A stretch of 64,000 nt of DNA from Catenulispora sp. GP43 (GTDB lineage Bacteria; Actinomycetota; Actinomycetes; Streptomycetales; Catenulisporaceae), in contig NZ_JBGCCT010000019.1 of the NCBI RefSeq assembly GCF_041260665.1, positions 59,492 through 123,491 of the forward strand. Direction: 5' to 3'. Within the stretch, counting starts at the first letter, position 1, and every line of letters starts with the position of its first letter. The translations under genes and the position numbers were made by a program. Below the pieces are notes generated by a model, which did no database searches, was not told where the DNA came from, and saw only the letters and a list, made by a program, of their open reading frames with translations. Shown one piece after another: positions 3,474 through 63,622 of the stretch.

Positions 3474-4141
3474 CCCTTCGACCCGGTTCCAGAGCCGGAG
3501 TCGGACACGGACCCAGGCCCGGACCCGGACCCGCTGATCGAACCAATCCCGCCGATCCCGCCCCACCCCTTCTCCAGCACGGCGAACGCCACCTCGACCG
3601 TGCCCTTCGGGTCCTTACTGGCGCGGGCCAATGACGCGGTTTCCAGCGCGAAGTGCGCGAGGACCGCACACGCGGTGTCGTCCGGCGCCGCCCCGACCTC
3701 GACGGCGATCGCCGCCGCGAGCGCCCCCTCGTGGCGCATCCACATCCGGTGCCAGTACTCGCGCAGCACCGGCGTGTCCTCAACCAGGCGGCTATACGCC
3801 GCGAAGGCCTCGTCCTCGATGGGGAACTTCAGCCGCTCCAGGGTCAGCGCACGCAACGCCTCCAGGATGGACGTTCCCGGAGTCCGCTCGCGCACCGCCG
3901 CGACCAACTGGGCCTCGATCTGCGCGTCCTCGTCGAAGACCAGCGCTTCCTTGCCGGTGAAGTGCTTGAACAACGTCGTCGTGGAGACGTCGGCGGCGTC
4001 GGCGATCTCCCGGATCGACACCTGGTCGTAGCCGCGTTCCAAGAACAGGGCCAGCGCGGCGTCGGCGATGGCCTGGCGGGTGGCCGCCTTCTTCCGCTCG
4101 CGCCGTCCGGGTTGCTGGGATTCTGCTTCGCTGCCGGTCAC
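3470..4141 (-). CDS. TetR/AcrR family transcriptional regulator (Gly/Ser-rich C-terminal tail)
   Basis: N-terminal HTH signature KKAATRQAIADAALALFLERGYDQVSIREIADAADVSTTTLFKHF. C-terminus GIGGIGSISGSGSGPGSVSDSGSG is low complexity. Divergent to the MFS gene at 4223. Confidence 0.85.
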   Translation of the reverse strand: MTGSEAESQQPGRRERKKAATRQAIADAALALFLERGYDQVSIREIADAADVSTTTLFKHFTGKEALVFDEDAQIEAQLVAAVRERTPGTSILEALRALTLERLKFPIEDEAFAAYSRLVEDTPVLREYWHRMWMRHEGALAAAIAVEVGAAPDDTACAVLAHFALETASLARASKDPKGTVEVAFAVLEKGWGGIGGIGSISGSGSGPGSVSDSGSGTGSKG

Positions 4142-4222: not shown

Positions 4223-5698
4223 ATGTCCACCACACCTGCTCCGCCCCACCCCGACGCCGCCCCGCGCCACGTGCGCTGGGCCCTGCTCGGCGTCATGCTC
4301 GCGATGCTGCTCTCCATGCTCGACAACACGGTCGTGGGCACCTCGATGCCGACGATCGTCCGCGAGCTGGGAGGGTTCGACCACCTGTCGTGGGTCGTCG
4401 TCGCCTACACCCTGGCCACCGCCGCCTCGACCCCGGTCTGGGGCAAACTCGGCGACTTGTACGGCCGCAAGCACGTCTACCTGGCCTCGATCGTCCTGTT
4501 CCTGGCCGGCTCCGCGCTGTCCGGCGCCGCACAGTCGATGAGCTGGCTGATCGCGGCGCGCGCCTTCCAGGGCATCGGCGCCGGTGGGATCGGCGCGGGC
4601 GCGTTCGCGCTCATCGCTGCCCTGGTGCCACCACGGGAGCGTGGCCGCTACCAGGGCATGACCGCCTCGGTCATGGCGATCGGGACCATCGGCGGGCCGC
4701 TGCTCGGCGGGTTCGTCACCGGGCACTTCGGCTGGCGGTGGGCGTTCTACCTGAACCTGCCGCTGGGCCTGCTGGCGCTGGTCTGGTGCCAGGTCATGCT
4801 CGACCTGCCGGTGGTACGCCGACGGGCCCGGATCGACTGGGCCGGCATCAGCCTGCTGACCCTGGTGATCACGTCCGTCACGCTCGCCGCCAACTGGGCC
4901 GGGACCACCTACTCGTGGGCGTCCTGGCAGGTGATCGGGCTGTTCGCGCTCGCGGCGGCCGGCGTCGGCGCCTTCATCGCGATTGAGCGCCGCTGTCCGG
5001 AGCCGGTCCTGCCGCCGCGGGTGTTCACCGGCCAGCGCAACTTCCCGCTCGCCATCGCCCTGATCACCGCCTCGGGCGTGGTCATGTTCGGTGCCTCGCT
5101 CTACCTCCCGTTGTTCCAACAGAGCGTGCAGCACGCCACGGCGACCAGTTCCGGGCTGCTCCTGCTGCCGATGATGATCCCGATCGTCATCGTCTCCCAG
5201 CTCGGCGGGCGCTACATGTCGGCCACCGGCCGCTACAAGATCTTCCCGGTCCTCGGCGCGGCACTGATGGCCGTGGGGCTGATCCTGCTGTCGACCATGG
5301 ACCCGTCCACCTCCCGTACGGCTACGAGTCTGTACATGGCGATCGTCGGGGTCGGGCTCGGCGCGCAGATGCAGATGGTCACGACCATCGCGCAGAACAG
5401 CGTCGAGATGCGCGACATGGGTGCCGCCTCGGCGAGCCTGAACCTGTTCCGCACGGTGGGAGGGTCGATCGGGGTGGCGGTGTTCGGCTCGTTGTACAAC
5501 CGGCAGGTGAGCCATGAGGCTTCGGCCGTGCAAGGCGTTGCGAACGGCTCGCACCTGATCTTCCTGATCACGGGCCTGGTCTGCGCGGTCGCGTTCACGG
5601 CCGCGCTGGCAATCAAGGAAGTGCCGCTGCGCAAGGCGACGGGTCCCGGCGTCACACCGGCCGGCTCGCCGGCGCTGGCCGACCGGGGCGCACGCTGA
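4223..5698 (+). CDS. MFS transporter, DHA2 (EmrB/QacA, 14-TMS) family
   Basis: Repeated hydrophobic helices. MFS motif A (GKLGDLYGRKHV) after TM2. ~490 aa, typical of 14-TMS drug:H+ antiporters. Divergently paired with the TetR gene. Confidence 0.85.
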   Translation: MSTTPAPPHPDAAPRHVRWALLGVMLAMLLSMLDNTVVGTSMPTIVRELGGFDHLSWVVVAYTLATAASTPVWGKLGDLYGRKHVYLASIVLFLAGSALSGAAQSMSWLIAARAFQGIGAGGIGAGAFALIAALVPPRERGRYQGMTASVMAIGTIGGPLLGGFVTGHFGWRWAFYLNLPLGLLALVWCQVMLDLPVVRRRARIDWAGISLLTLVITSVTLAANWAGTTYSWASWQVIGLFALAAAGVGAFIAIERRCPEPVLPPRVFTGQRNFPLAIALITASGVVMFGASLYLPLFQQSVQHATATSSGLLLLPMMIPIVIVSQLGGRYMSATGRYKIFPVLGAALMAVGLILLSTMDPSTSRTATSLYMAIVGVGLGAQMQMVTTIAQNSVEMRDMGAASASLNLFRTVGGSIGVAVFGSLYNRQVSHEASAVQGVANGSHLIFLITGLVCAVAFTAALAIKEVPLRKATGPGVTPAGSPALADRGAR

Positions 5699-42857: not shown

Positions 42858-43310
42858 GGACTAGCCCCTCTCGGGCGAATCAACATTTTTATACAAAAAG
42901 GACGCTCGACCGCTGCGGTCGGCGTCCCCGGAAAGCCTCGTCGCCATGGGGCGACCGGCCCTGCCTCGGTGATGCGGCGACGAAAAGTCGCCGAGCTGAA
43001 GGGCCCCGATCGCGATCGGCGGCCCGGTATTTCCCGGACATTCCCAGGAGAGGCATCGAAACCATAACATGGTTGATATCGCTGTCAAGGCGGCGTCCGG
43101 ATGCGCGATGACGATGCCTTATTCGCGCGACGGCGTGCCTACGGAAAGCGATGACTCGGCGGTGCGAGCATCGCAAAAAGAATGATTCGGGCAATTCGGC
43201 GCGGCGGGGCGCGACGGAGTGCGACTAAGCACGGCAGCGGCAGCGGCCAAGCCCTCAGATCCCTGACGCCCCTCCTTGACACCCCCCGCTCCCCGACGGA
43301 AACTCACCAC

Positions 43311-56916: not shown

Positions 56917-57804
56917 ATGCAGCGCGTCTGTTTCCTGTTGAAGGTGAAGGCCGAACTGGCTGAGGAATACCGGGCACGCCACGAGACGGTGTGGCCGGAC
57001 ATGCTGGCGACGCTGAGCGCGTCCGGTTGGAGGAACTACTCGCTGTTCCTGCGGCCGGACGGGCTGCTGGTCGGCTACCTGGAGACCGAGGACTTCGGCG
57101 CCGCGCTCGCCGCGATGGCCGGCTCCGAGGTCAACGCCCGGTGGCAGGAGGAGATGGCGCGCTACTTCGAGGGGATCGACGGCGGTGCGCCGGATGGGGC
57201 GATGGTGCCGCTCGATGAGGTGTTCTATTTGGAAGGTCAGTGTGTGCAGGGCCCGCAGGACCGGGACGTCCTCGGGATGGCCTACCAGGAAGTCCTCGTT
57301 GAACAGCAGTACCGAGCCTTCGACGCCGGTGGCGTCCTGCCAGTGGTGCACCTGTCCCGGCACGATGACCCCGAAGTGCGGCGGGGTGATCGGCCAGGGC
57401 TGGGAGTCCACGACGTGCAGGCCGCGGCCGGCGGTCACCAGCACGATCTCGTAGAAGGTGTGCCGGTGCGGGAAGTCGGCCAGCGACAGGGGCCCGATGC
57501 GCTGGAAGGAGCCGGCCGCGAACGGCAGGAGGGCGACCTCGGGCACCTCCAGCTCGTGCAGGTCCAGACGGCCGCGGCCGGCGCCGGGTGCGCGCTCGGT
57601 GTGGGGGGACGGCGCCGAAACGTCCATATCGGCATCCTGCGATGTCCGCACGCCGCGCGTCCAGCCCGGGTCAGGACCCTGAGGTGGCCTGGTAGATCTT
57701 CGCGATCCGCTTCGAGAAGTAGATGCTGTAGGAGATGTCCGGGGAGTTGCCGCCCTGTTCGTACCCGCCGAGCACGCCGACCAGCCGGTTCCCCGAGGCG
57801 ATGA
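56917..57804 (+). CDS. rhaM: L-rhamnose mutarotase-like (first ~105 codons) reading without a stop into antisense sequence
   Basis: N-terminal 105 aa match the RhaM pattern (...MVPLDEVFYLE). No stop codon for 560 more nt. That remainder is antisense of the cupin ORF. Confidence 0.5.
   Translation: MQRVCFLLKVKAELAEEYRARHETVWPDMLATLSASGWRNYSLFLRPDGLLVGYLETEDFGAALAAMAGSEVNARWQEEMARYFEGIDGGAPDGAMVPLDEVFYLEGQCVQGPQDRDVLGMAYQEVLVEQQYRAFDAGGVLPVVHLSRHDDPEVRRGDRPGLGVHDVQAAAGGHQHDLVEGVPVREVGQRQGPDALEGAGRERQEGDLGHLQLVQVQTAAAGAGCALGVGGRRRNVHIGILRCPHAARPARVRTLRWPGRSSRSASRSRCCRRCPGSCRPVRTRRARRPAGSPRR
57250..57627 (-). pseudogene. AraC-family regulator N-terminal cupin domain without HTH domain (likely truncated)
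   Basis: Cupin ligand-binding signature FPHRHTFYEIVLVTAGRGLHVV...HFGVIVPGQVHHW. The rest of the 260-aa ORF is antisense of rhaM and has no AraC HTH. Confidence 0.4.
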
Positions 57805-58567
57805 ACGGGCTGCCGCTGGCCCCTTCGGGCAGGCCCGAGCAGTCCAGCTCCAGCTGGGTGTCGGTGTACTTCTTCGTCGGCGCGGTGCAGCCGACGGGCC
57901 GGGACGCCAGCAGCGGATACGACGCGATGCTGATCGAGTTCGCGTACCCCGGCTCGGCGGAGAACGTGTCGGCGCCGGTGAGGCTCTCCAGGGTCTGCGT
58001 TCCGCCGCCGACCTTGCGCACCTTCAGGAAGGCTATGTCGGCGTCCGGGTCCTCTTGGGCCACCCAGTTCGAGTCCAGGTAGGCGGTGGTGGCGACCCAC
58101 TCCCCGTAGGGCGCGGTGTTGTCGTGGTACCCCGGTACGAACACGATGTGGTTGTTCCAGCCGGTGTAGAGCTTGTCGTACACGCAGTGCCCGGCAGTGA
58201 CGATCAGGTCCCCGGATCCGCTGTGTACGACACTGCCGGTGCAGTAGTGCGCCGACACCACGCCCCCGACGCTGAAGAACACCGCGCCGACCTTGGGGAT
58301 CCCGTCGAAGGCGACAGCGCTGACCTTGCCGTTGGCCGTGGTGCCGGCCGGGATCGATCCGGTCAGCGGCGGCCCCGAACGCAGCACGGTGTGCGGGTCT
58401 TCCGGGGTGGACTCCATGACGTGCGTGACGACCTTCGTGGCGGCCGCCTCGCTGCTGGCGGAGCTGGCAGCGGCATCAGCGGCGGAAGAGCCGCCGTGGC
58501 AGGCCGTCGCCAGCACCGACACGGCGAGGGCTGTGGACGCGAGCAGACCGTGGCGGCGGTTCTTCAT
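57671..58567 (-). CDS. secreted trypsin-like (S1) serine protease lipoprotein
   Basis: Lipobox LATAC. Catalytic triad contexts TAGHC, DIAFL, GASGSPF. Confidence 0.8.
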   Translation of the reverse strand: MKNRRHGLLASTALAVSVLATACHGGSSAADAAASSASSEAAATKVVTHVMESTPEDPHTVLRSGPPLTGSIPAGTTANGKVSAVAFDGIPKVGAVFFSVGGVVSAHYCTGSVVHSGSGDLIVTAGHCVYDKLYTGWNNHIVFVPGYHDNTAPYGEWVATTAYLDSNWVAQEDPDADIAFLKVRKVGGGTQTLESLTGADTFSAEPGYANSISIASYPLLASRPVGCTAPTKKYTDTQLELDCSGLPEGASGSPFIASGNRLVGVLGGYEQGGNSPDISYSIYFSKRIAKIYQATSGS

Positions 58568-58635
58568 AACAGTGAGGATGCCTCCGGATTCGGAACGTTG
58601 TCAGTCGCGCAGCATACCGGTCGCGGTTGTCGGGA

Positions 58636-59625
58636 TTACCAATGCGCTGATAGCGAGCGCAGCACCGCGCCGCGCACGGAAACCGGCTCCCCCTCGGCGC
58701 CCGGCAGGCCGCCGACGAGTCCGGGCAGGGACGCGCCGAACGGGTCCACGTCGAAGACGTATTCGGATTTCTCGTTGTCCAGGATGAGATCCACTCCCAG
58801 GGAGCGGATCCCGGCGAAGAGCGTGGCGGTGCGCTCGGCCAGCGCGATCAGCCGCTCCCAGCGCTCGGTCGCGAACCGGGTGAGGAAGGCGTCGATCTCG
58901 CGGCGCCTGCCGCCGTACCACTCGCGCAGCGCGTCCCCTTCGCGCTTCACGCCGACGGCGTGGGTGACTTTGCCGTCCAGCACCGCGAACCGGAAGTCGT
59001 AGAAGTTGTTGAGCAGGTGCACGCGGTGAAGCGAGGCGACCGCGTGGATCCCGTCGGGGGCCAGCAGTTCGGCGACTTCGGCCAACTCCCGTCGGTCGCC
59101 GGCGCCCTGGCCGGGAGCGCGCCAGACCTCGAAGCCGGTGCGGGTGCGGTGCCGGAACAGCTGCGTGCGCCAACCGTCGATCATCCACTCGTCGGAGCCG
59201 GCGAACCGGGGTCGCAGGGTGTTGCCGCCGACGGCGGACACGTCGGAGAGTTCCAGCAGCGGAAGGCCGCTGTCGCGCAGGAACGCGTCACACTTCGTAC
59301 GGTCCAGTGCCAGCAGCGTCTGCTCGACAGAGGCCGCGAGGCTCGCGCCGGCCTTGGTGGCCGCCGCGTCCAGGCGTTCCAGGGCTGCTTGAAGGTGCGC
59401 GTACCGCGCACGCTGGCCGCCGACCGGATCGGCCGCGGTGTCAGGGTACAGACGTTCGGCGAAGACCACCTCGCCTGAGCCGAACTCGGCCTCGGAGTCC
59501 ACCACGGCGGACCACGGCACGAAACGCGGCTGTGCGAGGCCGGCCTGCTGTGCCGCACGCGACCATTCGGCGCGCGCCGCCTCGTCCTCCTGGCCGGTCA
59601 CGACCGCCCAGCTCGGCGTGCTCAT
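58636..59625 (-). CDS. STM4014-like uncharacterised protein
   Basis: 329 aa. Overlaps the upstream LRR gene by 4 bp. I recall the adjacent STM4014/STM4015 family pairing; function unknown. Confidence 0.5.
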   Translation of the reverse strand: MSTPSWAVVTGQEDEAARAEWSRAAQQAGLAQPRFVPWSAVVDSEAEFGSGEVVFAERLYPDTAADPVGGQRARYAHLQAALERLDAAATKAGASLAASVEQTLLALDRTKCDAFLRDSGLPLLELSDVSAVGGNTLRPRFAGSDEWMIDGWRTQLFRHRTRTGFEVWRAPGQGAGDRRELAEVAELLAPDGIHAVASLHRVHLLNNFYDFRFAVLDGKVTHAVGVKREGDALREWYGGRRREIDAFLTRFATERWERLIALAERTATLFAGIRSLGVDLILDNEKSEYVFDVDPFGASLPGLVGGLPGAEGEPVSVRGAVLRSLSAHW

Positions 59626-60578
59626 TCGGCGACCGCTATGAATCGGTCGTTGTCGCGGCCCAGCAGTGCTTCGTCCACGTTGATGTCCGCTTCCGGGAGG
59701 GCTTGCCAGAGCCGTTCGATCATCTCGTCGCTGATCCAGTGGTGGTGCAGGTCTAGGCGGTGCAGGTGGGTCAGGGGCTGGCCGGCGAGCAGTGCGGCCG
59801 CGCCGTCGTCGCCGAGGGTTCCGAGGGCGAGGTCCAAGGATTGCAGGCGGGCCACGACGGGGGCGTGGGCGAGGACGGCGGCCAGGGCGTCGGTGTCCTC
59901 GGCGTTGCGCAGGCCCAGGTGTCGCAGGGCTGGGAAGGCGGTGCCGGACAGGATGGCGGCGAGGTCTGCGGCCTCGGCGCCGCCTTCGTAGATCGAGGTG
60001 CCGAGGTAGAGGTCCAGGCCGGTGAGGGCGGGCAGGGTGGAGGCGCCGATGGCGCGGACGACGTGCGGGGGCAGGCCGCCGGTCTGCAGTGTCAGTTCTC
60101 GTAGTCGGTCGTGGGCCAGGGGTTCCATCGACATCTCGGCGGTGCCGCGCAGGCCGAATTCGACCAGGTTCGGGAAGGCGGCGAGCAGCGGGCCGGGGTC
60201 GGGTTGTCCGATCCAGGAGACTTCGGACATCTCCGAGGGGACGTCTCCGACGAACAGTGCTTCCAGGTTGGGGAAGCGGTCGGCGGCGGCCAGGAGTGCG
60301 GCGTGGTATTCGTCCCAGCCGGTGCCGGACTCGCAGGAGTCCCAGGCGGCCAGGGTCAGGGCTTTGACGCGGGTGGTGTCGACGGTCTGGAGGAAGGCCG
60401 GCCAGATCTGTTCGCCGTCGGCCTCGTCGTATTCGTCGGCGCCGACGCGCCAGGCCCAGGCTTCGATGTCGTCGGGGACGCCGCCGGGTTCCAGCTCGGC
60501 CGGGTCGCCGTGGGCGAAGGGGAACACCGGCAGACCGTGGAAGGTGGTCAGGGCGTCGCGTCGGAAATCCTGGATCAC
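59622..60578 (-). CDS. leucine-rich-repeat protein (STM4015-like)
   Basis: Repeated LxxLxLxxN/L segments (LPALTGLDLYLG...LRHLGLRNA...LQSLDLALGTLGDDG...LHRLDLHHHWISD). 318 aa. Confidence 0.6.
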   Translation of the reverse strand: MIQDFRRDALTTFHGLPVFPFAHGDPAELEPGGVPDDIEAWAWRVGADEYDEADGEQIWPAFLQTVDTTRVKALTLAAWDSCESGTGWDEYHAALLAAADRFPNLEALFVGDVPSEMSEVSWIGQPDPGPLLAAFPNLVEFGLRGTAEMSMEPLAHDRLRELTLQTGGLPPHVVRAIGASTLPALTGLDLYLGTSIYEGGAEAADLAAILSGTAFPALRHLGLRNAEDTDALAAVLAHAPVVARLQSLDLALGTLGDDGAAALLAGQPLTHLHRLDLHHHWISDEMIERLWQALPEADINVDEALLGRDNDRFIAVAE

Positions 60579-60624
60579 CCGGGCACGGTATCGGTTGCCG
60601 GGGACACTGTGACGGCCGGCCGTG

Positions 60625-60639
60625 TTGTATACAATCGTG
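60625..60639. promoter_or_regulatory. GntR-type operator TTGTATACAATCGTG (copy 1)
   Basis: Perfect palindrome TTGTATACAA fits the FadR/GntR consensus. Identical 15-mer at 61631-61645. Lies ~50 nt upstream of the LRR/STM4014 operon start. Confidence 0.5.
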
Positions 60640-60700
60640 TTCTCAGAGCTTTGATTCTCAGCGATTGCTGCTTGACGGTGGCAGCATCGGAAGAGAGGGC

Positions 60701-60976
60701 ATGCTCAATACGCCGGGGGGTGCAGTGCTCGGGGTCGTGGTCGTCCCGTTCTTCTGTGCCATGATCCTGACGTTCGTCGCGGCGTTGCTGGTGCTGCTGG
60801 TTCTGCTGGCCGCGCGGATCGTGCTGCTGCCGGTCGCGCTGGCCCGGCGCGTCAGGCTGCGCGCCTGGCTCAAGCCGCCGTTCGACCGCTTCCGCCGGAT
60901 CTGTTCGGCGATCGCAGTGATCGCCGACAGCCTCGAAGACCTCCTGGACAAGATGCCGCCGACTCGCCCTCACTGA
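60701..60976 (+). CDS. small hydrophobic membrane protein
   Basis: ~91 aa with two predicted TM helices. Weak evidence. Confidence 0.3.
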   Translation: MLNTPGGAVLGVVVVPFFCAMILTFVAALLVLLVLLAARIVLLPVALARRVRLRAWLKPPFDRFRRICSAIAVIADSLEDLLDKMPPTRPH

Positions 60977-61617
60977 TCCCGGTGGGCGTCCCGTCCCCGG
61001 GCGATGTGCCGGACCACGATGCGGGCCGCCTTGTCCGGGTCGCCGGATTCCAGGACCTCGACGATCTCGCGGTGCTCGCGCCAGGAATCCTGGGCACGGC
61101 GCGGCAGCTTGGCCGTGTAGACCCACTCCATCTTCCATCTGAGCTGGGTGATCAGCTCGGTGAGGGTCCGGCTGCCGGAGGCCTGGGCCAGGACCTCGTG
61201 GAAGCGGCTGTTCAGCCGGGCCAGCTCCTCCAGGCGGCCGGCGGCCAGCGCGTCGTCGGCCAGTGCCACCAGTTCCTTGAGCCGGCCGAGCTGCTCGGGG
61301 GTGTGGCGGACGGCGGCCCGTGCGGCGCCCAGCGGCTCCAACAGCGAGCGGATCTCGATCAGGTCCTCGGCCTCGGCGTCGTCGAGCTCGGCGACGACCA
61401 CGCCGGCGTAGGGGCGCCGGGCGACGAAGCCCTCGGCCTCCAGCGTGCGCAGGGCTTCGCGGACCGGGACGCGGGAGACGCCGTAGCGCGCCGACAGCGC
61501 CTCCTCGGCCAGCCGGGCGCCTGGGGCGTGGACGCCGCGGATGATGTCGTCACGGATGGCGCGGGTGACGCCGCCGGCTCCGGCGGTCCCGCGGTCCTTG
61601 CCAACCCTGCCGTCCAT
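60970..61617 (-). CDS. GntR family transcriptional regulator (FadR-type C-terminal domain)
   Basis: wHTH (ARLAEEALSARYGVSRVPVREALRTLEAEGFV) plus all-helical FCD domain. Confidence 0.85.
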   Translation of the reverse strand: MDGRVGKDRGTAGAGGVTRAIRDDIIRGVHAPGARLAEEALSARYGVSRVPVREALRTLEAEGFVARRPYAGVVVAELDDAEAEDLIEIRSLLEPLGAARAAVRHTPEQLGRLKELVALADDALAAGRLEELARLNSRFHEVLAQASGSRTLTELITQLRWKMEWVYTAKLPRRAQDSWREHREIVEVLESGDPDKAARIVVRHIARGRDAHRDQ

Positions 61618-61630
61618 CCGTCACCCTTGA

Positions 61631-61645
61631 TTGTATACAATCGTG
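61631..61645. promoter_or_regulatory. GntR-type operator TTGTATACAATCGTG (copy 2)
   Basis: Identical 15-mer to 60625-60639. Lies between the divergent gntR and BASS transporter genes. Confidence 0.5.
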
Positions 61646-61668
61646 CCCGACCGGGAGGTGGAAGGGCT

Positions 61669-62754
61669 GTGGCGAACGTACTACAGGGCGGCGGGCAGGC
61701 CGTGCGTGGCGCTCTGGGCTCGATCAACCGCCTGGGCAGGATCGGCGTCGACCCCTATCTGCTGACCATCCTCGGCACGGTCGCGCTGGCCACGCTGCTG
61801 CCGGCCCGGGGCCCGGCGGCGACCGGCCTGAGCCATGTCACCGTGGTCGCGATCGGCCTGCTGTTCTTCCTGTACGGGGCACGGCTCTCGCCGAAGGCCG
61901 CGTGGGACGGTATGAAGCAGTGGCGGCTGCACGCGGTGATCCTGGCCGCGACGTTCGTGCTGTTCCCGCTGCTGGGGCTGGCCGCCGAGGCCGCGTCCCG
62001 GCCGGTGCTGGGGCCGGAGTTGGCCAAAGGCGTGCTGTTCCTGACGCTGCTGCCCTCGACGGTGCAGTCCTCGATAGCGTTCACGTCCCTGGCCCGGGGC
62101 AACGTCGCGGCGGCGGTGTGCGCGGCGTCGTTCTCCTCGCTGGCCGGGATCGTGGTGACGCCGGCGCTGGCCTCGGTCGTGCTCGGCGGCGCGGTCCGCG
62201 TGAACGGCGGCGCGGTGCTGGCGCTGACCGCGCAGCTGCTGCTGCCCTTCGCCGCCGGCCAGATCGCGCGCCGCTGGATCGCCGGGTGGATCGGCGCGCA
62301 CAAGCCGCTGCTGACGCTCGTCGACCGCGGCTCGATCCTGCTGGTGGTGTACAGCGCGTTCAGCGAGGGCATGGTCGCCGGGGTCTGGCACTCGGTGTCG
62401 GCGGCGCGGCTGGGGGCGCTGGTGGTGTGCTGCGCGGCGCTGCTGGCGGCGGTGCTGACGCTGACCGGGCTGGCCTCGGCGCGGCTGCGGTTCGCGCGGG
62501 CCGAGCGGGTGGCGCTGGTGTTCTGCGGGTCGAAGAAGAGCCTGGCCTCGGGGCTGCCGATGGCGGCGGTGTTGTTCCCGGGGCACGAGCTGAGCTTGAT
62601 GGTGTTGCCGCTGATGGTGTTCCACCAGGTTCAGCTGATGGCGTGCACGGTCCTGGCGCGGCGGTGGGGACAGCGGGACGCCGGCTCCGGCGCGCAGGCC
62701 GGCGGTCCAGCCAGCGATCCGGCCGGGACGCGGTTGGCCGCCGTGCGGGCCTGA
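61669..62754 (+). CDS. bile acid:sodium symporter (BASS/YfeH-like) family transporter
   Basis: GTG with GGGAGGTGGAAGGG RBS. ~10 TM helices. Conserved LPSTVQSS and GSKKSLASG segments typical of BASS. The track ORF start at 60982 is antisense of gntR. Confidence 0.75.
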   Translation: MANVLQGGGQAVRGALGSINRLGRIGVDPYLLTILGTVALATLLPARGPAATGLSHVTVVAIGLLFFLYGARLSPKAAWDGMKQWRLHAVILAATFVLFPLLGLAAEAASRPVLGPELAKGVLFLTLLPSTVQSSIAFTSLARGNVAAAVCAASFSSLAGIVVTPALASVVLGGAVRVNGGAVLALTAQLLLPFAAGQIARRWIAGWIGAHKPLLTLVDRGSILLVVYSAFSEGMVAGVWHSVSAARLGALVVCCAALLAAVLTLTGLASARLRFARAERVALVFCGSKKSLASGLPMAAVLFPGHELSLMVLPLMVFHQVQLMACTVLARRWGQRDAGSGAQAGGPASDPAGTRLAAVRA

Positions 62755-62797: not shown

Positions 62798-63622
62798 GTG
62801 AACCCACCTAAAGTCATCGCCACCGACCTGGACCGCACCCTGCTGCAAAGCGGCGGCACCACGTCGGAGCGCACCCGCGCCGCCCTCGACATGGCCATGG
62901 AGCGCGGGGCGCACGTGATAGCCGTGACCGCGCGGCCGATCCGGTGGCTGGACCGGCTCAAGCCGTGCTTCTCGCGGCTGCCGCACGTCATCGCCTCCAA
63001 CGGGGCGGTGTGCTACGACCTGGGGGCCGGCCGGGCCTACGACACCCGGCCGTTCGAGACCGCAACGCTGCCGAAACTGCTGTCCGGGCTGCGCGCGGCG
63101 CTGCCGGACGCCCGGATCGCGATGGAGACGGCATACGGCCTGGTGCGCGAGGACGGTTACGAGCTGTCGACGTTCGACCGGGACGGCGACGATGCCGGAC
63201 GGCTGGTAGTGCCGTTCGAGGACCTGGCCGGGGCGGTGGCGGACCAGCCGGTGCTGAAGCTGCTGACCACGGACCGGACGCGCGACAGCGCCGAGATGTT
63301 CGCCGAGGCGAGCCCGGCGGTCGGGACGCTGGGCCACCTGACCTACTCCACCCGGTACGGCGTGCTGGAGTTGGGGCCGCCCGGGGTCACCAAGGCCACG
63401 ACGCTGGCCGCGTGGTGTGCCGCCCGGGACATCGACGCCGCGGACGTGGTGACCTTCGGGGACATGCCGAACGACATCCCGATGCTGGGCTGGGCCGGCC
63501 GGTCCTACGCGGTGGCCAACGCGCTGCCGGAGGTGAAGGACGCCGCGAAGGGCGTCACGGCGAGCAACGACGACGACGGCGTGGCGCTGATCGTGGAAGA
63601 GCTCTTCGATACCCGGGGCTGA
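62798..63622 (+). CDS. Cof-type HAD-IIB family hydrolase
   Basis: Motif I IATDLDRTL. Cap domain. Motif IV FGDMPNDIPML. Confidence 0.8.
   Translation: MNPPKVIATDLDRTLLQSGGTTSERTRAALDMAMERGAHVIAVTARPIRWLDRLKPCFSRLPHVIASNGAVCYDLGAGRAYDTRPFETATLPKLLSGLRAALPDARIAMETAYGLVREDGYELSTFDRDGDDAGRLVVPFEDLAGAVADQPVLKLLTTDRTRDSAEMFAEASPAVGTLGHLTYSTRYGVLELGPPGVTKATTLAAWCAARDIDAADVVTFGDMPNDIPMLGWAGRSYAVANALPEVKDAAKGVTASNDDDGVALIVEELFDTRG

Follow-up and report, generated by a model that had tools for sequence, protein, structure and literature searches.

Which genes are served by two copies of a palindromic sequence that lie on either side of a single regulator gene is the question raised by a locus in Catenulispora sp. 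GP43. The locus is contained in a 64,000 nt stretch of contig NZ_JBGCCT010000019.1 (positions 59,492–123,491; assembly GCF_041260665.1), referred to here as the window, and coordinates are those of the window unless a locus number (L) precedes them. The regulator gene, gntR, is followed on the same strand by genes for an STM4015-family leucine-rich repeat (LRR) protein and an STM4014-like protein, all three on the - strand, and is divergent from a gene for a BASS transporter, beyond which lies a gene for a HAD hydrolase. A first, sequence-only reading had placed the two copies at either end of the STM4015/STM4014-like pair, and predicted one GntR regulon made up of the regulator, the transporter and a conserved two-gene module. 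The comparisons described below suggest that the palindromes are probably 5′ and 3′ operators of the local GntR protein, that they belong to an accessory cassette (BASS <- O5′ -> gntR - O3′) which adjoins the decayed remnant of a larger cluster, and that a regulon shared between the two would be a local accident.

Two palindromic sites at the ends of gntR

The 15-mer TTGTATACAATCGTG is present in exactly two copies on the + strand of the window, at 60625–60639 (site 1) and 61631–61645 (site 2). About 0.11 matches would be expected by chance with 3 mismatches tolerated, and none of 100 shuffles reached 3. The 10 bp palindrome within it, TTGTATACAA, is likewise confined to the two sites within the 64 kb window. 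Site 2, the candidate 5′ operator, is a perfect 14 bp palindrome, GATTGTATACAATC (61629–61642), in the middle of the 51 bp spacer between the ATG of gntR (61617, - strand) and the GTG of the BASS gene (61669, + strand), and carries the hexamer TACAAT on both strands. Site 1, the candidate 3′ operator, GTTGTATACAATCGTG (60624–60639), has its 10 bp palindrome at 60625–60634; 46 nt separate it from the GTG of the STM4015 gene downstream, and its centre is 51.5 nt upstream of that codon. The two sites thus bracket gntR and a strain-specific small open reading frame (ORF), and not the STM4015/STM4014-like pair. Five extra bases common to both copies beyond the palindrome (TCGTG) are strain-specific, and are unconserved at site 1 in relatives. 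The sole one-mismatch match in the window, TTTTATACAA at 42887, is without a GT box and was rejected as a GntR site; the surrounding sequence (42880–42925) is an AT-rich intergenic segment, ACATTTTTATACAAAAAGG, followed by a GGACGC...GCGTCC hairpin, which is unusual in sequence of around 70% GC.

Operators of the FadR subfamily are built from TKGT/ACMA boxes, and in the GntR, HpxS and UxuR groups the GT and AC elements are 2 nt apart (PMC4494728). The TTGT-AT-ACAA found at both sites fits this rule, including the 2 nt spacing class. The gntR gene (60970–61617, - strand) specifies a 215 aa protein of this subfamily, with a GntR winged helix-turn-helix (wHTH) domain at residues 17–75 (PF00392, 65.1 bits against a cutoff of 27) and an FCD domain at residues 85–206 (PF07729, 101.4 bits, cutoff 24.3). 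FCD is an all-helical C-terminal effector domain. The best NCBIfam match, phnR_burk, scored 127 bits, far under its cutoff of 271. The divergent transporter gene (61669–62754, + strand) is preceded by a GGAGG Shine-Dalgarno sequence at 61654–61658, and its product matches the SBF_like (DUF4137) profile PF13593 over positions 2–311 of 313 (302.5 bits, cutoff 25), while the match to the PanS equivalog reaches 34 bits against a cutoff of 400.

The two sites were followed through a comparison set of 11 loci from five actinomycete genera (Catenulispora, Kitasatospora, Streptacidiphilus, Nocardia and Actinomadura), with GntR orthologs in the last four genera that are 65–76% identical; those followed in their genomic context have 67–71% identity. 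All intact gntR-orthogroup loci examined (the window, L001–L004, L098, L010, L011, L099 and L100) have both a 5′ and a 3′ site with the consensus T[TC]GTAT[AT]CAA, one just 5′ of gntR and another that coincides with its stop codon or is no more than about 85 nt from it. The background is low: fetched loci that lack this gntR gave 2 matches at no more than one mismatch over 584,910 bases. Four Catenulispora loci (L001–L004) share the gene order HAD, BASS, gntR, STM4015, 4014-like and trypsin-like protease; the gntR/BASS spacer that includes site 2 is almost invariant among them, and site 2 is fully kept both there and in L098. Site 1 is kept as GATTGTATAC[A/G]A amid a diverged, length-variable spacer (L001–L004, L097 and L098). 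In Kitasatospora (L010) and Streptacidiphilus (L099), where the BASS gene is also divergent from gntR, a one-mismatch version, GATTGTATTCAATC, occupies the position of site 2. Nocardia (L011) and Actinomadura (L100) carry TCGTATACAA-type sites just upstream of gntR, and here the neighbours of gntR are amidase, formamidase, amidohydrolase, TauE and transport genes.

The 3′ site falls within the last 17 nt of gntR in L099, 3 nt past the stop codon in L100, and 45–85 nt past it in L001–L004, L097, L010 and L011, and the genes that follow it vary by genus (STM4015, a PemK toxin, an Amidase_2 gene 330 nt away, an amidohydrolase or TauE). Among the Catenulispora loci, site 1 is about 30, 51, 61 or about 78 nt away from the STM4015 start codon and a steady 50–60 nt or so from the gntR stop codon, the window being an exception owing to an insertion of about 295 bp. 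Since the 3′ site keeps its place relative to gntR and is indifferent to the gene beyond it, site 1 would be the regulator's own 3′ operator rather than a site that evolved for STM4015. By these comparisons, a two-operator layout that brackets the regulator gene is recurrent across genera, and GntR very probably binds both sites. The sequence-only reading was therefore correct about the repeat (60625 and 61631) and about its FadR/GntR type, as the motif matches published boxes and spacing and occurs together with the gntR orthogroup in five genera, but it was mistaken in having the operators flank the gene pair.

The gntR-BASS cassette and its neighbours

Regulator/transporter divergons controlled by FadR-subfamily repressors are well described (the GntR, HpxS, HypR, MdcY, PrpR and UxuR groups; Suvorova et al. 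2015, PMC4494728). Like these groups, the GntR of the window has wHTH and FCD domains, an A/T-rich TTGT-AT-ACAA motif and a single site in the middle of the divergon; unlike them, its orthogroup pairs this site with another at the 3′ end of the regulator gene, 0.7–1.0 kb away. An autoregulated GntR/transporter unit is ordinary in kind, and this part of the predicted regulon is supported by the divergent gntR/BASS pairing, which is conserved in three genera: Catenulispora (L001–L004, L098), Kitasatospora (L010) and Streptacidiphilus (L099). The inclusion of the STM4015 and STM4014-like genes did not fare as well, given a 3′ site that is independent of the following gene and a cassette that is often missing.

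A regulon dedicated to a single pathway would join transporter, regulator and the STM4015/4014 pair, with site 1 evolved as an operator of STM4015 and, for example, BASS importing the substrate of the ATP-grasp enzyme. In its favour, site 1 is close to the STM4015 start codon (46 nt) and is kept in six Catenulispora genomes, and in L002, L004 and L098, where about 30 nt separate it from the start codon, it coincides in part with the likely -35 region. The cassette also lies exactly between the HAD and STM4015 genes, with HAD 3′ of BASS, such that all five genes could be co-controlled. The distribution of the cassette argues the other way. Next to the STM4015/4014 genes, gntR-BASS is missing in C. 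acidiphila (L009) and C. yoronensis (L007/L008), and in these and a metagenomic locus (L018) the HAD and STM4015 genes are directly divergent across a spacer of 115–125 bp that contains no palindrome. C. yoronensis does possess an ortholog of this GntR (P0178). The cassette is missing too from all 80 metagenomic STM4015 loci (none has gntR or BASS nearby) and from the plasmid-borne STM4015 clusters examined. Conversely, gntR-BASS with a matching operator exists without STM4015 in Kitasatospora and Streptacidiphilus. Site 1 is missing wherever gntR is missing (L007–L009, L017 and L018); it lies inside the segment that cassette-less genomes lack, with homology restarting about 14 nt on the STM4015 side of it. 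Together with a 3′ site that is present whichever gene follows gntR, and an unconserved spacing to STM4015, this makes a dedicated regulon improbable.

In Catenulispora sp. MAP12-49 (L097), the closest relative (90% identical), a 1,245 bp deletion has brought the 3′ parts of BASS and gntR together, leaving a remnant (4380–4904) in which a 98 aa BASS fragment is joined to a 99 aa, FCD-only gntR fragment. The cassette thus appears to be decaying in the closest relative, and this loss, with the gene pair remaining intact, is a further point against a dedicated pathway. In a Catenulispora-like metagenomic contig (L017 3535–6000, 79% identity), the HAD/STM4015 spacer contains an insert of another kind, about 2.4 kb long, which has two small ORFs of 165 and 206 aa, and neither gntR nor BASS. 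The spacer looks like a recurrent insertion point.

A second alternative is that site 1 serves only the autoregulation of gntR, by looping with site 2 or as a roadblock, and that STM4015/4014 are transcribed from their own proximal promoter. All Catenulispora genomes, the cassette-less ones included, share a TAnnnT hexamer (TACCGT, TAGCGT, TAACGT or TACCTT) 6 nt ahead of the GTG of STM4015. Judged by the known actinobacterial -10 consensus, its conservation irrespective of the cassette suggests that STM4015 has its own promoter, yielding a leaderless mRNA. Site 1 of the window is centred at about -51 from the STM4015 start, upstream of the -35 position, and the anchoring of the 3′ site to gntR rather than to the downstream gene is also as this alternative would have it. 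On the other hand, the 3′ sites of Nocardia and Actinomadura are just upstream of plausible catabolic targets, indicating that such a site can be a true downstream operator, and in L002, L004 and L098 the site would cover part of the -35 region of the promoter proximal to STM4015. In addition, a terminator scan of 58400–62000 predicted no - strand terminators, so that read-through from gntR into STM4015 is possible. Autoregulation alone is on balance rather unlikely, although a better candidate than a dedicated pathway.

Our preferred explanation remains that of 5′ and 3′ operators belonging to an accessory cassette, which, in one Catenulispora lineage, sits at a place that in other genomes is the short divergent promoter region between HAD and STM4015. 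A GntR dimer on the 14 bp palindrome would occlude both divergent core promoters (one TACAAT, a -10-like hexamer, per strand), and a small-molecule effector, most simply the substrate of BASS, would free the repressor. The 3′ operator may either boost repression by looping to the 5′ operator, 0.7–1.0 kb away, or gate the downstream gene. With the 3′ operator 46 nt upstream of STM4015, and HAD 43 nt downstream of BASS, these neighbours and the STM4014-like gene may respond to GntR here as a by-product of where the cassette lies. Whether STM4015/4014 and HAD do respond in this strain is finely balanced, with the odds leaning slightly to the negative: an operator immediately upstream, the lack of a predicted terminator between gntR and STM4015, and the -35 overlap in three species speak for a response, and it is made less likely by the variable spacing and the independent STM4015 promoter. 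DNA binding, repression, looping, the effector and the effect on STM4015 are all features that we infer from sequence comparison.

Several observations weigh against this explanation. In L097, site 2 has been deleted and site 1 is retained in spite of the destroyed gntR, which could reflect recent decay or another binding protein. The cassette may have been either gained or lost at this position; the STM4015 protein of C. acidiphila is 80% identical to that of the window, compared to 75–77% in some cassette-bearing species. The uniqueness of the motif is that within the 64 kb window, which was the part of the genome scanned. A promoter scan of 58400–62000 predicted no sigma-70-like promoters, so all promoter placements at the locus are inferred. 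Finally, a MarR-family (OhrR) operator of B. subtilis has the same 12-mer, ATTGTATACAAT, at its core, and for this reason the sequence by itself cannot name the binding protein.

The last point leads to a third alternative, that the palindromes are not GntR operators at all and are either bound by another regulator (e.g., of MarR type) or are repeats with no regulatory role, for instance the termini of a mobile cassette. The OhrR operator string, the bracketing of a segment that is variably present among species, and the persistence of site 1 in L097 without an intact gntR nearby could all be read in this way. The motif, however, tracks the gntR orthogroup into unrelated contexts in five genera, at the same positions relative to gntR, and fits the FadR-subfamily consensus. 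Because the BASS gene, although part of the variable cassette, is outside the bracketed segment, the ends of the indel do not coincide with the repeats, and no transposase or integrase was found at the locus by gene calls or Pfam. As the five extra shared bases are, moreover, strain-specific, terminal repeats of a mobile element were rejected, and the alternative as a whole is highly improbable.

The insertion that separates gntR from site 1 (60655–60986, + strand; about 295 bp between the gntR stop codon and site 1) was recognised by comparison with relatives, being missing in L001–L004 and in the 90% identical MAP12-49. It carries an ORF (60701–60976, + strand) for a hydrophobic, predicted membrane protein of 91 aa, which the sequence-only reading had omitted. 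This ORF is convergent with gntR, overlaps the gntR stop by 7 bp, and has a coding-like GC content at the three codon positions (0.71/0.45/0.88). It had no match in Pfam or NCBIfam, and no similar DNA or protein was found among the fetched loci. On the + strand, the TACAAT of site 1 is 66 nt upstream of its ATG, and it could be a newly captured target of GntR.

Also passed over in that reading was the HAD gene (62798–63622, + strand), which is 43 nt 3′ of BASS on the same strand, codes for a Cof-type HAD-IIB hydrolase (PF08282, 144 bits), and belongs with the STM4015/STM4014-like pair. At the other side of the pair is a gene for a trypsin-like serine protease (57671–58567, - strand) with a lipoprotein-type signal (…LATAC), which is syntenic 3′ of the 4014-like gene in all Catenulispora loci examined, whether or not they have the cassette. 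PADLOC defence models gave nothing for the pair, the regulator or the transporter except a chance 14-bit match of Csa3 to GntR, and an Rfam search of the entire window returned no match.

The STM4015/STM4014-like pair and the STM4010-4015 cluster

The STM4015-family gene (59622–60578, - strand) specifies an alpha/beta LRR solenoid protein of 318 aa that matches NF038076 at 323.6 bits (cutoff 275). Its stop codon overlaps the start codon of the STM4014-like gene (58636–59625, - strand; 329 aa) by 4 bp (ATGA), and the same ATGA overlap is seen in L001, L002, L004, L007 and L009. Both products are 100% identical to annotated proteins of strain GP43. The STM4014-like protein is under the family cutoff, matching NF038074 at 76.5 bits (cutoff 175) over its C-terminal third only, and had no Pfam match. 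It has a three-domain ATP-grasp fold closest to ArgX, LysX and RimK, and its best structural matches include LysW- and S6-modifying enzymes. A profile search with an alignment of 4014-like proteins against PDB sequences returned only a chance ribosomal-protein match, so the ATP-grasp kinship is visible by fold alone. The gene assignments of the sequence-only reading (GntR with FCD, BASS, STM4015 and STM4014-like) agree with these domain and profile searches, its overlapping reading frames were found as described, and its guess of an ATP-grasp enzyme was right at the level of fold.

The catalytic motifs of this fold are degenerate in Catenulispora. In alignment with canonical STM4014 proteins, which score 309–422 bits against NF038074, DK has become DR, VKxxHGSSASGV has become LRPRFAGSDEW, ERWLPKA is lost, TNLHLGG is replaced by REWYGG, and ExN (EVN) by DxD (DVD). 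None of the canonical motifs for ATP and Mg2+ (the two Lys, the Gly-rich loop and ExN) remains, and both ATP-binding Lys have been replaced by Arg. The new residues do not vary across the Catenulispora clade, which makes a changed activity as possible as a lost one. The ratio of nonsynonymous to synonymous substitution (dN/dS) is 0.29–0.59 for the 4014-like gene and 0.22–0.60 for STM4015, compared to 0.05–0.15 for gntR, which points to weaker purifying selection on both genes of the pair than on gntR, and to a 4014-like gene that is maintained under relaxed constraint. In C. pinisilvae (L003 7954–8243), it is an internally deleted, frame-shifted pseudogene, in which about 28 N-terminal codons are joined to the last 60 or so, while STM4015 and its tail are intact.

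The larger cluster from which the pair appears to derive was surveyed by tblastn against annotated plasmids and chromids, and by a metagenome scan. Its canonical order is STM4015 (1–4 tandem copies), STM4014, STM4013, STM4012 and STM4011, and it is found in this form in Salmonella, Streptomyces, Deinococcus, Paenibacillus and most metagenomic loci, many soil contigs among them, and partially in Bacteroides. In 47 of 57 evaluable loci, STM4014 comes directly after the final copy of STM4015. By Pfam, STM4014 is an ATP-grasp protein, STM4013 has a sulfatase/alkaline-phosphatase fold, STM4012 is a HemN-like radical S-adenosylmethionine (SAM) protein, STM4011 is a radical SAM protein with a weak SPASM match, and STM4010 is a Cof-type HAD protein. 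The HAD hydrolase gene is inside the operon in Salmonella (Cof-HAD) and nearby in Deinococcus, and the HAD of the window is 35% identical to the one beside the Deinococcus STM4011-4015 cluster.

Members of the Salmonella STM4010-STM4015 cluster and their cross-phylum homologs are covered by NF038074, NF038076 and the sister models from which NCBI names STM4011-4013, none of which has an assigned function. The literature searched gave no function for STM4011-4015 or SEN3800, which are mentioned only in tables (sigma-54 chromatin immunoprecipitation, a positive-selection list and an RNA-seq list). Like the Salmonella cluster, the window keeps the 4015 -> 4014 order with an overlap, a Cof/HAD neighbour and a ...xE tail. 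Unlike it, the window is without STM4013, STM4012 and STM4011 (no homologs of 4011–4013 were found anywhere in the window), its 4014-like protein is under the family cutoff, and a foreign gntR-BASS cassette separates HAD from 4015. Catenulispora retains only HAD, STM4015 and the sequence-divergent 4014-like gene. Rather than the conserved two-gene module that had been proposed, the pair is, going by gene content and alignment, a reduced and partly decayed derivative of a STM4015-4014-4013-4012-4011(+HAD) cluster.

A natural fusion protein of 586 aa (P0354) combines a canonical STM4014 ATP-grasp (residues 4–370, 309 bits) with a HAD-IA hydrolase (379–578). In the manner of a Rosetta stone, it ties the ATP-grasp to a HAD phosphatase, in keeping with the HAD neighbours in Salmonella, Deinococcus and Catenulispora. 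A DUF6745 protein gene and a small hypothetical ORF lie beside the cluster in Streptomyces fungicidicus (L013 4327–5791) and Deinococcus taeanensis (L014 11993–13290), and may be further cluster members. Sulfatases carry C/S-x-P-x-R. In Salmonella STM4013 (L012 9871–10746), the corresponding sequence is ...FTWPSHHAMFSGF, with Thr at the nucleophile position. Read from sequence only, this argues for an enzyme of phosphodiesterase/phosphatase type and not a formylglycine sulfatase, and STM4011 and STM4013 were accordingly rejected as an anaerobic-sulfatase-maturase/sulfatase pair, there being Thr instead of Cys or Ser at this position in the Salmonella protein.

The C-terminal glutamate tail of STM4015

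An AlphaFold2 model of the STM4015 protein of the window is a confident LRR solenoid (predicted local distance difference test score, pLDDT, of 89.8; predicted template modelling score, pTM, of 0.90), followed by a linker and a C-terminal tail, RFIAVAE-COOH (codons at 59625–59645, - strand, from homolog comparison). Residues 309–318 have a pLDDT under 50 and are predicted to be disordered. The closest solved structure, PDB 2RA8 (Foldseek E-value 1.5e-17, template modelling score 0.73, 28% identity), is a structural-genomics target from Bacteroides fragilis (Q64V53) that is itself uncharacterised and gives no clue to mechanism. About 220 STM4015 proteins from five phyla close with R-[YF]-[IV]-x-[VI]-x-E-COOH, and in the slightly wider form R-[YF]-[IVT]-x-[VI]-x-E-COOH the family consensus runs right up to the stop codon. 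The terminal Glu is present in all 120 close homologs and at 96 of 101 metagenomic ORF ends, the non-Glu ends being one recurrent degenerate paralog in four-copy arrays (three instances) and two truncated matches. Distant members also end in Glu (Salmonella MYTE; Streptomyces VAVGE, twice; Deinococcus VALGE, twice; Bacteroides MITE; Paenibacillus SLTE), and in these an acidic linker precedes the tail.

Arrays of four STM4015 copies lie upstream of STM4014 in three loci (L033 1470–5241, L034 6001–9772 and L067 5–3212). The second of the four is a shorter paralog whose C-terminus, ...YVGIGA, has no Glu. Having several substrate-like copies of STM4015 side by side recalls the multi-precursor clusters for ribosomally synthesized and post-translationally modified peptides (RiPPs).

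A tail that is conserved yet predicted to be disordered, the translational coupling of the two genes, the fold matches to LysW- and S6-modifying enzymes, and sequence matches to glutamate ligases (the next-best NCBIfam matches of canonical STM4014 are RimK-family, CofF and MptN alpha-L-glutamate ligases) together suggest that the ATP-grasp protein may act on the C-terminal Glu of STM4015. ATP-grasp ligases that work on a terminal glutamate are known in RimK, which modifies ribosomal protein S6, and in LysX/ArgX with the carrier LysW (PDB 4iwx, 3vpb, 5k2m). As in those systems, the partner of STM4014 ends in an invariant Glu, with a flexible tail and an acidic linker; unlike them, the partner is a 300 aa LRR protein and not a small zinc-ribbon carrier or ribosomal protein, and the likeness is known from sequence and fold. 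We therefore put forward only as a tentative idea, more doubtful than not, that STM4015 is a dedicated substrate or carrier whose tail is the acceptor for a RimK/LysX-like STM4014 ligase, with the remaining cluster elaborating or releasing the product and the Catenulispora pair a stripped-down version.

Weighing against glutamate ligation, orphan STM4015 proteins without an adjacent 4014 keep the tail in Actinospica robiniae (L005) and in L019, L022 and L025, and the tail might just as well be read by the radical SAM enzymes. The orphans (L005 5001–7987, L019, L022 and L025) have full RYIAVSE-type tails, and the divergent neighbours in L005 are genes for a B12-binding radical SAM protein (505 aa) and a 79 aa ORF.

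For the regulator, the comparisons add a predicted operator, T[TC]GTAT[AT]CAA, with good support from conservation among relatives, for an uncharacterised actinobacterial orthogroup of FadR-type GntR proteins. They also caution against reading a regulon from adjacency, since an accessory cassette appears to have landed in the promoter region of another cluster, where the adjacent genes may have come under its control. Extending the regulon to STM4015/4014 would then be a possible case of regulatory capture, arising from a lineage-specific juxtaposition and not from shared function. The most valuable lead is the invariant terminal-Glu tail of STM4015 beside a RimK/LysX-like ATP-grasp protein, which bears on the wider STM4010-4015 cluster more than on the degenerate copy in the window. 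If the ligation model is true, the cluster would carry out a protein-templated modification or biosynthesis akin to the LysW pathways, on an LRR protein that is often present in 2–4 tandem copies, and the HemN-like and weak-SPASM radical SAM proteins, the sulfatase-fold hydrolase and the HAD phosphatase would elaborate or release what is built on its C-terminus. The ATP-grasp protein of Catenulispora would in that case be a non-canonical enzyme or a mere tail-binding partner. Through this tail, the STM4010-4015 cluster, present in Salmonella LT2 and in at least five phyla, gains a concrete and testable handle.

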